Source: a phage
Sequence record: PV874203.1
Length of the DNA stretch: 64,000 nt
Reading direction: 5' to 3' (one strand)
In this document: piece after piece, positions 53,399 to 62,983 of the stretch
Numbering within the stretch: position 1 is the first letter of the stretch
Layout: every line of letters begins with the position of its first letter
Notes under the pieces: generated by a model
Databases searched by the model: none
Seen by the model: only the letters and a program-made list of their open reading frames with translations
What the model was told of the DNA's origin: nothing
Translations under genes and position numbers: made by a program

Positions 53399-53474
53399 TG
53401 GTGCACCCTACAGGACTCGAACCTGTAACCAACGACTTAGAAGGTCGCTGCTCTGTCCATTGAGCTAAGGGTGC
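53399..53474 (-). tRNA. tRNA-Arg (anticodon UCU), CCA encoded
   Basis: Minus-strand cloverleaf: 7-bp acceptor stem GCACCCU/AGGGUGC, D-arm GCUC/GAGC, anticodon loop CUUCUAA, T-arm ACAGG-UUCGAGU-CCUGU, 3' ACCA. Confidence 0.85.
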
Positions 53475-53483
53475 TATATTTAT

Positions 53484-53792
53484 TTATAAGGAGAAAGACT
53501 TCTTACAATCCTTCTCTTCAAAAGTGTAGTAGCCTGTTGTATCAGGGAAGTAGGCATACTTTGTTTCTTTGCCATCAATAGCCATGACACGATTACCAGA
53601 AGTTGTTTCTACAAACAGAAGCCCATCTCTTACCATACCATGAGATTCTTTGATACCAGTTAAGCTATGCTCTTTAAGAGTGCATTGCTGAACACTCTGA
53701 TACTTAACTCCAATCTCTGCACTATTAACAGAGATGATACCAATGGTTGTCATTAGTAGTAAGGTTGAGATGATAAAATGCTTTTGTTTCAC
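53484..53792 (-). CDS. secreted/periplasmic protein
   Basis: N-terminal signal peptide MKQKHFIISTLLLMTTIGIISVNSA. Confidence 0.5.
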   Translation of the reverse strand: MKQKHFIISTLLLMTTIGIISVNSAEIGVKYQSVQQCTLKEHSLTGIKESHGMVRDGLLFVETTSGNRVMAIDGKETKYAYFPDTTGYYTFEEKDCKKSFSL

Positions 53793-58057: not shown

Positions 58058-58501
58058 CTATTTAACCCTTGCCTCTTTGATGGGGTCAATGTATTTCTCA
58101 ACGCCCCACTTGTGTTTACTATCTGCATAGAAAACATCAGGAGCACACTGGCTTGTCTTAGGAAAAGCCTGCGGGTCTTTCGTGCTACCCTTAAACTTCT
58201 GTTTACCACGGGTGCGACCATTACAGAAGATTTCTAACTTCTTCTCCTCTTCTGTTTTAGCTCCCCCGCTCTTTAACAAAGAACGTTTATGATCAGCTAA
58301 CAACAACGCATCAGCACGATGGACACGATGGCCTACACGTTTTGCCACACTAGAAGGGATATGAGATTCAGCCTCAGCTTTTGCAGCACGGCGTTTTAAA
58401 CTGCGCTTACTAATGTAATTGGTTGCCTTCGGCTTCCCTTTCTCCAGTTCAGAGATAGAAAAACAACGCCCGCCCTTCATGCTGATTTTAGATTTAGTCA
58501 C
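58058..58501 (-). CDS. basic hypothetical protein
   Basis: 147 aa, Lys/Arg-rich. Confidence 0.4.
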   Translation of the reverse strand: MTKSKISMKGGRCFSISELEKGKPKATNYISKRSLKRRAAKAEAESHIPSSVAKRVGHRVHRADALLLADHKRSLLKSGGAKTEEEKKLEIFCNGRTRGKQKFKGSTKDPQAFPKTSQCAPDVFYADSKHKWGVEKYIDPIKEARVK

Positions 58502-59328: not shown

Positions 59329-60237
59329 TTATGCTGCCTGACGTGCCGCCATAATCTCAGCCGCTTTACGCAATACTTCCTCTTCTTCTTCTTTCGCAGC
59401 TTGTTCGGTACGGGTAGCAACCGTTGAAGAGATACGACCGCGCAGTCCTTCTAACTTCTCCTGCATAGCTGCGATAGTCTTTTCCATTTCATCAGCGTAT
59501 GAATCGAGTGATTCCAGTTCCTTGCTTGATGCGTTCATCAGATAATCGTCAGAGATCGCTACCGTTGAAGCCGTGACTTTCTTGATGAGTGAATCAAAGG
59601 ACTTTTTAACCTTGCCCACTTCTTCACTCAGTGCGATCGTGTTATCGCTGGTAGCGCCGTTGCGCTCATCAGCCAGTAATTTGGCTTCAATACGGATTGC
59701 ATTCAAGCGTTCAACCAAAGCGTAAATATCTTGGTTAAAGTCTTCTTTATTCTTTGCCGGAATTTGCAGGTGTGCCGCTACGTTGTCATTGCAACCTTTG
59801 AAGAAGTTAGGGTTATCGACTTCAATTTCACGACCTAAGGCAAAGTTTTCGAAAGCATTTGACCAGCGAGCGCGGTTTTGTTCCATTTTGGCCTTAATTT
59901 GCGCCTCTTTCGCATCTTCTTTCGCTTTCGCTTCACCTTCCAGATTAATCCACTTCTTACGGCCATTCGCCGCATCAGTGTTAAACTTGATAGGAGTTAA
60001 GAAAGTGATTGCAGTGGCGATCACGTCCATATCGCGGAAGCGTTCAGTTAACAGAAAGTCAACCGCCGTCTGCAATACTTCTAACTTTTTACCGTTACTG
60101 CGGAAGTGCTGCAAGTGCCCTAACAGAAAATTAGAAACATCTTGCTTGATCGCCGCGTTATTGCTACGAATGTTGTTAGCCAGTGCGTTAAAACCAGATT
60201 CTTTTACCAGATTAAAAACTTTAGCCATGATATTCAC
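59329..60237 (-). CDS. hypothetical early protein
   Basis: 302-aa helical, charged ORF; RBS AAAGGTG; codon composition differs slightly from the middle genes. Confidence 0.55.
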   Translation of the reverse strand: MNIMAKVFNLVKESGFNALANNIRSNNAAIKQDVSNFLLGHLQHFRSNGKKLEVLQTAVDFLLTERFRDMDVIATAITFLTPIKFNTDAANGRKKWINLEGEAKAKEDAKEAQIKAKMEQNRARWSNAFENFALGREIEVDNPNFFKGCNDNVAAHLQIPAKNKEDFNQDIYALVERLNAIRIEAKLLADERNGATSDNTIALSEEVGKVKKSFDSLIKKVTASTVAISDDYLMNASSKELESLDSYADEMEKTIAAMQEKLEGLRGRISSTVATRTEQAAKEEEEEVLRKAAEIMAARQAA

Positions 60238-61054
60238 CTTTCAATTGTAAGGGCACTATGCCCCGCTCTCTATGAGCTTGTTTAAGTCACTATTAACTTA
60301 ACTATAACCACTCGTTGTTAAGTAGTTATAGGTAAGCGGGGCGGTCTTATCAGGAGTTAACCTTGCCGCCCCCTTATCCGTGATGTTTCATCTGGTACGC
60401 TTTAATTTTCCGCTATAAATAAAGCCGGATTGCGTAGCGATGATCAATCATCACAATAAGGCTATGCGTCCAACTCAATTTAATTACATTGCTGTAACCG
60501 TTGGCAATATCGTCTACTTTGCTTTCGCTCCCGCCTATCCTTTGTGCCAACTCCTAACCGCTAACCATCGCCCACTACGGGAGGTTATTGCGGAAAGAGA
60601 TCATTGACCGCCTAATATTCCGGCGTTTTATATCTTTCGGCGGGTTTACTACATAACCCGACTATGTACTTCCGTCATAAGACGAATCTCAAGCCGTTCA
60701 CATCGTAAACGTTCGCATTAAACCTTATTGTTAAATAGCAATTTGCCACTTTTTAACCACTCCCCGCCGCCCTCAATTGGGCGTTAATTCGTCGGACTTG
60801 TCTGCCCTGATTAGTTTCTTTCACTGTAGCACCGTGTTAGCGATGGCCGCCGCTACCCTTAACCGTGGGCGATTAGCTTAAACCTTTGCGTGTACTCAAT
60901 GAATCCGCTTATCAGTGGCGACTTTTCCAGTTAAGGGATTGTAAAACTGTTTACCCTGATGTTTTAGGGAGTTTTACGCCGTTTTATCTGGTATGCTGTC
61001 CGATGGTTATTATCTTCCAGCATATTTAACCGATATATGGGAATGTTTAAATTG

Positions 61055-61065
61055 TTAAAGAGCGG
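61055..61065. repeat. TTAAAGAGCGG repeat, copy 1
   Basis: ATTGTTAAAGAGCGG; one of four copies in the ORF-poor region. Confidence 0.45.
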
Positions 61066-61288
61066 TAAATCTGTCAGCGTGCTTTCTCACGCTACGCAAC
61101 TGTTAGCCGTTGTTACGCTTTTCACTTAAGCGGTGATTTGCTTCAGTGATGCTCATTATGGACCATGATGTTTTTGCTGTCAACCGCTTTTTTAATCTTT
61201 TTCGTCGTTCCCGCTATTGGGAGGATATATCAACCCGCTTTATTGGGTTGAAGATTAAGCGATGAGGCTTAACCCATGATTCATATTG

Positions 61289-61298
61289 TTAAAGAGCG
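61289..61298. repeat. TTAAAGAGCG repeat, copy 2
   Basis: ATTGTTAAAGAGCG; plus-strand context gives TTGTTA-N17-TATAGT. Confidence 0.45.
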
Positions 61299-61562
61299 TT
61301 TAGCCTTTTATAGTGTCTGCTAATCACTGCATCATTAAAGGCTTACTTATTCATTAACGGGGCGCCTAATCCCGAACTACCCGCTGCACTATGTGCCACC
61401 TTTCCCGCGATACGTTGATTTAGGAACTAGTTAACGTTGTTTTGTTAACTTGTGGTTAGTATGAACTACCTTAACCACGTTTGCAACCCTTTTTTATCAT
61501 CTTCTTTTATTCTTTTCCCTTATCTCGCTTGAATCTATGCGAAAGGGCAAGATGATAAGTTT

Positions 61563-61573
61563 TTAAAGAGCGG
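61563..61573. repeat. TTAAAGAGCGG repeat, copy 3
   Basis: TTTTTAAAGAGCGGG; lies just downstream of the predicted minus-strand sigma70 promoter. Confidence 0.45.
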
Positions 61574-61602
61574 GATGCTTTAAGTCATCGCTGACTATGC
61601 TC

Positions 61603-61631
61603 ACTATATATCAGGCTATTTTCGGTGTCAA
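61603..61631 (-). promoter_or_regulatory. sigma70-type promoter (minus strand), candidate early promoter
   Basis: Minus strand reads TTGACA-17 nt-TATAGT (plus tgtcaa 61626..61631, actata 61603..61608). Confidence 0.55.
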
Positions 61632-61670
61632 TACTCTTTTTAAGAATATTTTCACTTTCTAGCCTGATTT

Positions 61671-61683
61671 TTAAAGAGCGGGG
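61671..61683. repeat. TTAAAGAGCGGGG repeat, copy 4
   Basis: TTTTTAAAGAGCGGGG. Confidence 0.45.
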
Positions 61684-61727
61684 CAATTTCTTGCCTTGTA
61701 TGTTTTTCATCGTACCCGATGAATTGA

Positions 61728-61755
61728 AGTATACATTAATCAGTGAGGGATGCAA
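61728..61755 (-). promoter_or_regulatory. sigma70-like promoter overlapping a TAATGTATA motif (minus strand)
   Basis: Minus strand TTGCAT-16 nt-TATACT; the -10 overlaps TAATGTATA (plus 61730..61738). Confidence 0.4.
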
Positions 61756-62016
61756 TAGGGTAAAGCAAACTATTTTAAACTTTTTCACTATAGGGAAGAT
61801 AAAGGAACGGGTGCGCGTGATACATCATAGAAAACGGCTTGTAAAGCGATATTTAGCGGCCTAAAACGCACTATAGCGAGCTAAAAGGGAGTAAGGTATA
61901 CAATCACCTTAGAAACGATAAGAGCCTCACTAGGAGGCTTATAGGAAGGATTTAGAGCATTAGATAGATTATGACCATAGGCATGACTACGGCACAATAT
62001 AGGAGAAAGATTAAGC

Positions 62017-62391
62017 CTATGGATTTACACACTGACCATTACCTGATGCCATTTCATTCATGGACTCATCAAAGAGCGTCAACGATGAGCGCATTAAGTG
62101 ATCAACCGTAACTTGTTTACCAGTGGTTTCATTCACTAATTGAATAGTTTTAGCGTATGATTGTACATGCTCGAAATCATTTACATGCAAAATAATAACC
62201 TTAGGTGACTTTTTACCAGTCTCATAATTCTCCACAAGATAGGTGCACTGTAAACCGTCAACCGTAGCAGGGGAAAACGTTGCAGCTTTAACGCTACCCA
62301 TAGCAGATAGTAAGACACCCAACAGAAGAATGACCAGAAAGAAGCCTACAAATACTTTCACTACGAATTTAATAATACCCATGATAATCAA
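62017..62391 (-). CDS. membrane-anchored protein
   Basis: N-terminal hydrophobic helix IIKFVVKVFVGFFLVILLLGVLLSAMG. Confidence 0.45.
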   Translation of the reverse strand: MIIMGIIKFVVKVFVGFFLVILLLGVLLSAMGSVKAATFSPATVDGLQCTYLVENYETGKKSPKVIILHVNDFEHVQSYAKTIQLVNETTGKQVTVDHLMRSSLTLFDESMNEMASGNGQCVNP

Positions 62392-62484: not shown

Positions 62485-62739
62485 TTAGTTGCACTTACCC
62501 TCAAAATATGCTACGCTAAGTAGTTCGATCTCTTCCAGAGAAAGGAGAATCTCACGTTGCGCCAGATAACGACCAATTTCAGCGTCATCCATAGCTAGAG
62601 CGACAGCAGGAAACTCAACCGCATCAGCCTTATCGCCACTAGTAAACAAGATTAGACACATGTCAGAACTGTCAGTGTATGAGAAATCAATATCCCCATA
62701 GTTGTGCGTAGAGATAGTGAAGCTATATTCTTTAGCCAT
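62485..62739 (-). CDS. hypothetical protein
   Basis: 84-aa ORF. Confidence 0.4.
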   Translation of the reverse strand: MAKEYSFTISTHNYGDIDFSYTDSSDMCLILFTSGDKADAVEFPAVALAMDDAEIGRYLAQREILLSLEEIELLSVAYFEGKCN

Positions 62740-62983
62740 GTATCAATCCCTCACTAAGCAGGTTAGCCAGAGTTAAATCACCGTCAATATAAATTGACTT
62801 GAAATCTTCACGGGTAATTTCAAAATTAGCAAAGGCTAACCAATCCTTAAGAGGTTGAAATTCCATCCTACAAAAAGTAATAACAGGTAACGTTATCTGA
62901 CCATCAAGCGTGTTAAACATGATTTCAGAACGACCAACGAAACAGGAAAAACCATTAGCCAGCTTAATTTCTTTGATAGCCAT
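62732..62983 (-). CDS. hypothetical protein
   Basis: 83-aa ORF overlapping downstream gene by 8 nt. Confidence 0.4.
   Translation of the reverse strand: MAIKEIKLANGFSCFVGRSEIMFNTLDGQITLPVITFCRMEFQPLKDWLAFANFEITREDFKSIYIDGDLTLANLLSEGLIHG

Follow-up and report, generated by a model that had tools for sequence, protein, structure and literature searches.

A conserved structured RNA of about 0.9 kb behind candidate BoxA elements at the start of the early region in phiEco32-like coliphages

We report a conserved, structured non-coding RNA of about 860 nucleotides (nt), encoded on the minus strand (61112..60250) of a 64,000-nt stretch of phage DNA from record PV874203.1, which as a whole is hereinafter termed the window. 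It lies in the region 60238-62016 (1,779 base pairs (bp)), between the homologues of phiEco32 genes 124 and 125, and is headed by an array of predicted host-type promoters and candidate BoxA elements. We posit, at a probability of roughly three in four, that these parts make up an early unit resembling a ribosomal RNA (rRNA) operon, with tandem promoters, loading of Nus factors at BoxA and a large structured RNA co-transcribed with gene 124.

The region matched 98 phage records at 75-93% identity, all of them phiEco32-like coliphages of the subfamily Gordonclarkvirinae (Kuravirus and Suseptimavirus), and most of these records carry no annotation beneath the matched stretch. The window belongs to a phiEco32-like coliphage, in which the region forms the space between genes 124 and 125 that about 100 genomes have in common and that bears no annotation. 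In phiEco32 itself the equivalent gap measures 1,944 bp (72787-74730 in the linear record of 77554 bp); across all relatives compared it spans 1.3-2.3 kilobases (kb), with both flanking genes on the minus strand. Salmonella phage 7-11, formerly called phiEco32-like and now placed in another family, has neither a comparable gap nor a BoxA in its right 20 kb. When the RNA was compared by BLAST with every complete E. coli genome and with the PLSDB plasmids, no match was returned, indicating that the RNA is derived neither from the host nor from a plasmid.

Results and discussion

The stretch is non-coding

We aligned 23 genomes, namely the window and 22 relatives. The part of the region next to gene 124 (60238-61270) is conserved at 0.8-0.97 and almost free of gaps; the early genes to the right reach 0.6-0.7. 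The mean pairwise identity of the RNA stretch (0.894) exceeds even that of the DNA of gene 124 (0.851). Variable sites in the RNA fall on the three codon phases at 128/112/110, as against 50/238/80 in gene 124, and its gap runs comprise 327 of 1 nt, 63 of 2 nt and 8 of 3 nt, with none in gene 124. No open reading frame (ORF) of the region is conserved across the relatives, the lengths and positions of such frames being variable. The stretch is thus non-coding. An earlier note on this sequence had stated that there was no credible ORF of 60 amino acids (aa) or more; two mechanical ones do occur, of 67 aa (61585-61788, minus strand) and 79 aa (61625-61864, plus strand), both within the indel-rich and poorly conserved right part. 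The same note had described the region as more GC-rich than its flanking genes, which is true of the right flank (0.36-0.41, against 0.43-0.45 at 60200-61000) but not of the gene on the left (0.445-0.458). The base composition of the RNA is A 0.33, C 0.20, G 0.24 and U 0.23.

The RNA has a covariation-supported structure

On the minus strand the sliding-window z scores from RNAalifold range from -3 to -11.5 and are stronger than those of the antisense strand in 11 of 13 windows. Over the whole 0.93 kb the consensus energy is -479, compared with -315 +/- 9 for column shuffles (z of about -17), and 74 pairs show compensatory changes where the shuffles show 9.5 +/- 2.3. A separate alignment-folding tool recovered 248 pairs and, in 70 of these, changes of both partners. 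When pairs were counted over the predicted helices, 99.0% of 5,704 cells were paired, while controls with the 3' partner slid along gave 33-47% paired cells and 5-11 compensatory pairs; none of 500 shuffles reached the observed values. G-U cells (598) far outnumber A-C cells (22), and the same helices mirrored to the plus strand are only 88.9% canonical; hence, it is the minus strand that folds. The suggestion of the earlier note that the untranslated stretch might encode a non-coding RNA is thereby borne out, by a structure far stronger than its reader could see. The parts of the RNA are as follows.

61112-61097 and 61094-61075, minus strand: two 5' hairpins (helices 1-2), with compensatory changes at 1 and 3 pairs.
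60752..61051, minus strand: domain 1, multi-branched and closed by helix 4, with a long arm of 123 nt (60922-60800).
60453..60751, minus strand: an invariant hairpin (60751-60733) and, next to it, domain 2.
60250..60452, minus strand: a 3' series of eight hairpins, with a sliding-window z of -11.5.

The second 5' hairpin stands about 11 nt upstream of the last BoxA copy, in the order hairpin then BoxA that is seen in the rRNA (rrn) operons. Domain 2 is closed by an invariant helix of 10 bp, ACAAUAAGG.U with G.CCUUAUUGU, and its inner helices 24-28 covary at 18 of 31 pairs. The 3' series includes GGGGCGGC-AAGGUUAACUCCUGAUAAGA-CCGCCCC, with a near-invariant loop. No U-tract terminator was found between the structure and gene 124, the structure stopping just ahead of the ribosome-binding site.

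Two copies of a further repeat, ATCTGGTA(C/T)GCT (our family D18), which had been noted at about 60390 and 60987, are present at 60385-60401 and 60981-60997. In the RNA sense it reads UACCAGAU(A/G)AAAC, and both copies are near-invariant among the aligned genomes, with one substitution in XT18. It is also complementary to codons 5-8 of gene 124 (60205-60216).

At the gathering score, a search of the whole window with Rfam 15 returned only the transfer RNA (tRNA) at 53402-53474, and at E <= 5 the region gave only three noise matches of 14-18 bits. The families that Rfam covers include GOLLD, ROOL, OLE, HEARO, the group I and II introns, RNase P, transfer-messenger RNA (tmRNA), 6S and the phi29 pRNA.

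Predicted tandem promoters and candidate BoxA elements precede the RNA

The predicted control elements are listed in the order in which a leftward-moving polymerase would meet them.

61913..61939, minus strand: terminator-like hairpin AGCCTCCTAGTGAGGCT with a T-rich tail, the same as the SU10 terminator listed at 74441 (S2 table, PMC4281155).
61728..61755, minus strand: weak sigma70-like promoter TTGCAT-16-TATACT of the first cassette, 8/12 by manual hexamer count and so outside the list of our promoter scan, whose threshold was 9/12.
61669..61679, minus strand: candidate BoxA copy 1, GCTCTTTAAAA (RNA CCGCUCUUUAAAAAU), preceded by the hairpin GGCAAGAAAUUGCC.
61603..61631, minus strand: predicted early sigma70 promoter TTGACA-17-TATAGT, 11/12, the same as the SU10 promoter at 73996.
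61561..61571, minus strand: candidate BoxA copy 2, GCTCTTTAAAA, at about +24 from the predicted start of the 61631 promoter.
61287..61297, minus strand: candidate BoxA copy 3, CGCUCUUUAACAA, for which the window has no promoter of at least 9/12.
61155..61183, minus strand: predicted early sigma70 promoter TTGACA-17-CATAAT, 11/12, the same as the SU10 promoter at 73511, with a predicted start near 61148.
61053..61063, minus strand: candidate BoxA copy 4, CCGCUCUUUAACAAUUUA, universal and at +75 to +89 from the 61183 promoter.

The repeat TTAAAGAGCG(G) was found as exact copies at 61055, 61289, 61563 and 61671, all on the plus strand, as the earlier note had reported, and the partial copy that it had placed near 60727 lies at 60729-60739 with one mismatch. 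On the leftward-transcribed strand the repeat becomes (C)CGCUCUUUAA(C/A)AA, a perfect match to the working consensus of the gamma-proteobacterial BoxA, GYTCTTTAANA (PMC5725501), the minus-strand readings of the four copies being CCGCUCUUUAACAAUUUA, ACGCUCUUUAACAAUAUG, CCGCUCUUUAAAAACUUA and CCGCUCUUUAAAAAUCAG. Published reference forms are the rrn BoxA UGCUCUUUA, the rrnG boxA-spacer ugcucuuuaacaauuua, the lambda BoxA CGCUCUUA and the nutL boxA-spacer cgcucuuaaaaauuaa (PMC2724277); copy 4 shares 16 of 17 bases with the rrnG boxA-spacer. The window holds six perfect matches to the consensus where 0.71 +/- 0.86 are expected (0/100 shuffles reach six), and four of the six lie on one strand within 630 bp. 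The remaining two, at 53669-53679 and 58268-58278 (plus strand), are on the strand opposite the early genes. The latter lies inside an ORF and is not conserved in the relatives, and hence is probably due to chance. The former is about 200 bp from a tRNA-Arg gene (anticodon TCT; 53399-53474, minus strand) that stands amid early and middle genes and was the sole find of the tRNA/tmRNA scan.

Each of the 22 aligned relatives has 3-5 sense copies of GCTCTTTAA, even within the indel-rich stretch that cannot be aligned. An antisense match to the short core GCTCTT(T/A)A was encountered only once in the 23 aligned genomes, in Bas93, and falls short of the full consensus; the distant loci tested had none. 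All copies run in the sense of the flanking genes, and most follow a promoter of 9/12 or better (mostly 10-12/12) at a distance of +8 to +140 nt, the majority of these promoters having TTGACA as the -35 hexamer. For copy 3, many relatives have a promoter of its own 8-17 nt upstream (TTGACA-16-TAAGCT or TAGAAT). The last cassette, in which the BoxA follows its promoter at about +84, is universal among the aligned genomes. A small hairpin precedes the BoxA in cassettes 1, 2 and 4, and the BoxA itself is mostly unpaired in minimum-energy folds. The motif thus appears to be kept by selection rather than through the descent of its surroundings, and its consensus, orientation, position and conservation together identify it as a predicted BoxA element.

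The paper on SU10 lists three sigma70 promoters in this spacer, "like phiEco32", together with a terminator after the upstream operon (PMC4281155). Two of the three correspond to 61631..61603 and 61183..61155 in the window (S2 table, PMC4281155); the latter, which the earlier note overlooked, recurs in this or a close form in all 23 aligned genomes. Leftward host-polymerase promoters, as proposed by that note, are supported by this list, which includes its 61603..61631 candidate; its reading of the region as an early control region was right, yet, given the SU10 publication, not new. The hairpin at 61913..61939 is predicted to close the upstream early operon, which consists of the homologues of phiEco32 genes 128-125.

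The other promoter that the note had proposed, TTGCAT-16-TATACT, is present as a sequence but makes a poor sigma70 promoter at 8/12, and it overlaps a perfect copy of TAATGTATA (61730-61738, minus strand) upstream of BoxA copy 1. TAATGTATA is the published promoter consensus of the phage sigma factor gp36 (PMC4281155), with five perfect copies in the window against 0.84 expected. The window shares the copy at 61730-61738 with Bas90, KBNP1711 and ECBP2 alone, and phiEco32 and SU10 lack it; hence, in this subclade the RNA may additionally be made in the middle or late phase.

The cassette stretch (61270-61860) is rich in indels, and the number of promoter-BoxA cassettes per phage ranges from 3 to 5. 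The flanks of the promoters and of the BoxA copies are mutually related (repeat families D3 and D5), which, along with the varying number, suggests gain and loss of cassettes through duplication.

The architecture recurs in distant clades

Homologues of gp124 at about 70% and 50% identity occur on phage contigs of 20-100 kb from metagenomes, each preceded by a gene-free stretch of 1.4-3.4 kb in which TTGACA promoters are followed by two or three BoxA copies in sense orientation. From the last of these copies to the ATG of the gp124 homologue there are 870-936 nt, the corresponding non-coding stretch in the window being about 830 nt. Hairpins equivalent to the 5' hairpins are present with a different sequence. 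With an nhmmer profile of the RNA, one distant locus was matched from end to end (E = 4e-96) and others in part. Folded alone, the intermediate clade has an energy of -411 (shuffled -198 +/- 4.5) with 109 compensatory pairs against 33, and the far clade an energy of -377 (shuffled -236 +/- 6) with 82 against 31; the domain layout is alike across the clades. A covariance model of the 123-nt arm (R1), too narrow at an effective sequence number of 0.79, gave only one weak match, at locus L042.

The clades share no 14-mer, such that pattern scans cannot reach further ones. Exact 18- and 20-mer scans of IMG/VR and metagenomes recovered only the same phage group, besides three AT-rich loci (L034, L035 and L036; metagenome contigs Ga0102958 and Ga0316197) that carry the exact 20-mer ATTGCTATTTAACAATAAGG with no other likeness to the RNA. 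The flanks of the 20-mer are conserved among these three, which appear to bear an unrelated conserved intergenic element.

In six of the distant loci (L041, L042, L044, L045, L049 and L051) the gp124 homologue is the first called gene past a gene-free stretch of about 3 kb, and these phages have no homologues of genes 125-128 at this position. In L041, L042 and L044 the stretch is preceded by a cluster of oppositely oriented genes, the terminase gene among them. With this gene order, the RNA would be among the first transcribed there.

Gene 124 and neighboring genes

59329..60243, minus strand: gene 124 homologue with its Shine-Dalgarno sequence, 299 aa from the ATG at 60230; phrog_13018, of unknown function.

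Gene 124 stands directly downstream of the RNA in every clade. Its protein is 95-97% identical in close relatives, has no Pfam family and matches PHROGs only in a family of unknown function; none of the six flanking proteins scanned had a Pfam family above the curated cut-off. An AlphaFold model of gp124 (59332-60228, minus strand; predicted local distance difference test score 78.8) consists mainly of helices, among them a long one at the C terminus, besides a small sheet. No fold in the PDB matches it significantly, and hence it gives no clue on RNA binding. The invariant residues include a G-x-K-K-W-I motif (G89, K91, K92, W93 and I94). Of the five most conserved proteins that the paper on YF01 gives for the group, one is an early hypothetical protein without a name, which may be gp124.

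To the right of the region, 62017-62391 and 62732-62983 (minus strand) code for early proteins of 124 and 83 aa, whose homologues are named "terminase" and "polymerase" in GenBank and PHROGs. These labels have no Pfam support and the proteins are far too small for them; they look like propagated errors.

Proposed mechanism and alternative explanations

Rho terminates the synthesis of untranslated RNA, and BoxA counters it at rRNA operons and CRISPR arrays (PMC6614797; PMC7665894). The BoxA-bound NusB/NusE pair nucleates a complex that shields rRNA and CRISPR transcripts and assists the folding of rRNA (PMC6614797; PMC5725501; PMC7665894). As tandem promoters, each with a hairpin and a BoxA, followed by a long structured RNA, reproduce the anatomy of an rRNA operon, we infer that the BoxA copies of these phages would bind NusB-NusE and make RNA polymerase resistant to Rho. 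We propose that, upon entry of the DNA, three or four tandem host-polymerase (sigma70) promoters would fire leftward, each transcript bearing a BoxA within its first 10-140 nt, usually right behind a small hairpin. The BoxA RNA would load NusB-NusE(S10), and with NusA, NusG and SuhB the polymerase would become an rrn-type antitermination complex, which would resist Rho on untranslated RNA and aid the co-transcriptional folding of long RNAs. The polymerase so modified would then make the untranslated RNA of about 860 nt (61112..60250, minus strand), with its two multi-branched domains and row of hairpins, and, there being no terminator in between, would continue into gene 124 and the remaining early genes.

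Several points weigh against this proposal. The function of BoxA, i.e. binding of NusB/E and resistance to Rho, is deduced from sequence, and the promoters are matches to a consensus and to the SU10 list, which was itself predicted with BPROM and by analogy to phiEco32. The RNA is G-rich rather than C-rich and may be a poor substrate of Rho anyway, as has been reported of rRNA (PMC5725501). BoxA could serve the folding of the RNA, the speed of the polymerase or the read-through of later terminators, and not the RNA itself. On the structural side, helix 3, which is predicted to bring the 5' end to the 3' end, gains no support from covariation and is disrupted in TH43 and Bas88, and no 3' end is marked, the structure reaching the ribosome-binding site of gene 124. 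The core sequences are close (74-92% identical), so that part of the compensatory changes counted stems from common descent; the slid-partner control and the independent clades nevertheless speak against an artefact.

As regards the role of the RNA, its conservation above that of its neighbors and the architecture kept across clades lead us to favor a function of its own, that of a stable RNA of the early phase, perhaps acting together with gp124, and to think a simple spacer less likely. The invariable adjacency of the two suggests a partnership, which we offer as a guess, gp124 being an orphan in both sequence and fold. More tentatively still, the RNA of about 0.9 kb might represent a new class of phage ribonucleoprotein or catalytic RNA, made first by means of a hijacked rrn antitermination complex and acting in trans in the takeover of the host, possibly with gp124. 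Possible roles in trans include the sequestering of ribosomal or Nus proteins, the blocking of an RNA-sensing defence and the organisation of early phage processes.

Of about the same standing as this last, tentative idea, though still doubtful, is that the RNA acts only in cis, as a giant 5' leader controlling the translation, stability or timing of gene 124 or of the early operon, e.g. by masking the ribosome-binding site, with no function as a free RNA. Neither a terminator nor an obvious processing site separates the structure from the start of gene 124, next to which the RNA lies in every clade, and BoxA/Nus complexes are able to repress translation downstream, as at suhB (PMC5725501). 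Yet about 250 bp in two large multi-branched domains is well beyond the needs of known translational leaders, and the RNA is more conserved than the gene that it would regulate. RNAalifold does pair the flank of BoxA copy 4 with the Shine-Dalgarno region, but this is helix 3, with the lack of compensatory change and the breaks in two genomes given above; similarly, the complementarity of the twice-present UACCAGAU to gene 124 falls to about 6 bp in relatives such as phiEco32.

Copies of BoxA on very strong early promoters could instead be decoys for NusB, NusE and SuhB that cripple the rRNA synthesis and ribosome assembly of the host, the RNA being secondary. A phage with 3-5 consensus-grade copies of the high-affinity rrn type, with CUUUA, on promoters of 11-12/12 would be well equipped for this, and a varying number of cassettes is expected of a dosage trait. 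We consider it improbable, since a decoy would work without a set spacing (about 870-936 nt) between the last BoxA and gene 124 and without 860 nt of covarying structure; moreover, one BoxA per transcript is the normal arrangement in rrn operons, and the proposal is pure inference.

Less probable again is that the region acts at the level of DNA, as an iteron origin of replication, as an array of repressor operators or as packaging or terminus signals, the last two having been suggested in the earlier note. The stretch is indeed long, non-coding and near the genome end, with direct repeats at irregular spacings of 234, 274 and 108 bp, and transcription-activated origins are known in other phages. 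However, the repeats are strictly of one orientation, lie in the transcribed part past the promoters and equal the RNA consensus of BoxA, which speaks against operators, and conservation tracks RNA pairing on one strand, where G-U is tolerated and A-C is not. With a G+C of 0.43-0.45 there is no AT-rich stretch for unwinding. As to a terminus, the gap of phiEco32 is 2.8-4.8 kb short of the right-hand end of its linear record and in YF01 an annotated direct terminal repeat of 193 bp begins about 2.4 kb to the right of gene 125, placing the physical end outside both the region and the window.

Finally, missed protein genes of fewer than 60 aa are very hard to reconcile with the absence of the 3-nt substitution periodicity that is strong in gene 124 and with gap runs that are about 98% of 1 or 2 nt, even if 5-10 tiny "hypothetical proteins" are called in some GenBank records (UKE3, EK5 and CHD5UKE1) and a 41-55-aa ORF (60440-60607) recurs in many relatives, since the latter is on the non-transcribed plus strand and varies in length, and ORF positions are not conserved.

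Novelty and significance

The papers on SU10, SU7, YF01, 7-11 and gp79 make no mention of a long untranslated stretch, an RNA or BoxA in these phages. No literature was found in which BoxA, antitermination or a non-coding RNA is connected with phiEco32 or Kuravirus, the primary phiEco32 papers (Savalia 2008; Pavlova 2012), which may comment on this, being outside the scope of the search; nor was any found that connects a lytic phage with BoxA. Judged by Rfam and the accessible literature, an early region that opens with a covariation-supported RNA of about 0.9 kb guarded by BoxA is new. To our knowledge, this would also be the first non-lambdoid lytic phage to use an rrn-type BoxA, and to do so as a repeated promoter-BoxA cassette.

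The element stands unannotated in about 100 sequenced coliphages of the phiEco32 type, several of them described in their source papers as candidates for phage therapy. As a large structured RNA in a virulent phage of E. coli K-12-type hosts, it would lend itself to straightforward genetics, structure probing and cryo-electron microscopy; the hosts of GOLLD and ROOL are harder to work with. Our proposal makes testable the idea that the antitermination complex of rRNA acts generally as a chaperone of structured RNAs other than ribosomal ones and shields them from Rho, and it bears on the read-through of the long early operon, a question left open for the relative 7-11.

Comparison with known systems

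Like the early region of T7 with its promoters A1-A3, the phages studied here have a cluster of strong host-polymerase promoters near a genome end, directed inward and placed before the first early genes. In T7, however, about 175 nt with an RNase III site lie between A3 and gene 0.3, rather than 0.9 kb of conserved structure, and we know of no BoxA there.

With nutL and nutR of lambda the phages share a BoxA near the 5' end of an early transcript, and copies 1-2 (CGCUCUUUAAAAA) resemble the lambda nutL boxA-spacer. In lambda the BoxA is followed by boxB, whereas here a hairpin comes first and then a BoxA of the full rrn-type consensus. We therefore rejected an N-dependent nut site of the lambda type, the hairpins of cassettes 1, 2 and 4 being 5' of the BoxA and not 3'. 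No N-like protein was identified in the Pfam scan of the six flanking proteins, no search having been aimed at an N-like arginine-rich peptide. Unlike lambda, the phiEco32-like phages are virulent and switch their programme by means of their own sigma factor and gp79.

GOLLD, ROOL, OLE and HEARO are likewise multi-domain RNAs of hundreds of nt with covariation support and unknown function, and GOLLD and ROOL are associated with phages. The present RNA differs in having no match to a covariance model of Rfam 15 even at E <= 5, in its occurrence in virulent podophages of the Enterobacteria type, and in its linkage to BoxA cassettes and a conserved protein gene.

The BoxA elements of CRISPR arrays and suhB, which conform to GYTCTTTAANA, provide a precedent for use outside rRNA (Stringer et al. 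2020, PMC7665894; Baniulyte et al. 2017, PMC5725501). Such elements carry RNA polymerase through long untranslated RNA or regulate a downstream gene (PMC7665894; PMC5725501). Those loci are cellular with one BoxA each, whereas the present one is in a lytic phage, with an array of cassettes before a structured RNA.

The closest likeness is to the rRNA operon of E. coli, in which the P1-P2 promoters are followed by a boxB hairpin, boxA, boxC and the structured rRNA, with a complex of NusA/B/E/G, SuhB and S4. The phage RNA bears no similarity to rRNA itself (no Rfam match to small- or large-subunit rRNA and no BLAST match in E. coli genomes), and no GU-rich boxC was seen in the phage region. Nevertheless, the leader of the operon and the phage region have in common tandem strong sigma70 promoters, a small hairpin and then a consensus BoxA with the rrn-type CUUUA and the AACAAUUUA spacer, and a long, untranslated and highly structured RNA downstream. 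What sets the phage version apart is that 3-5 promoter-BoxA cassettes stand in place of one BoxA, and that the RNA behind them precedes protein-coding genes, in a virulent phage.

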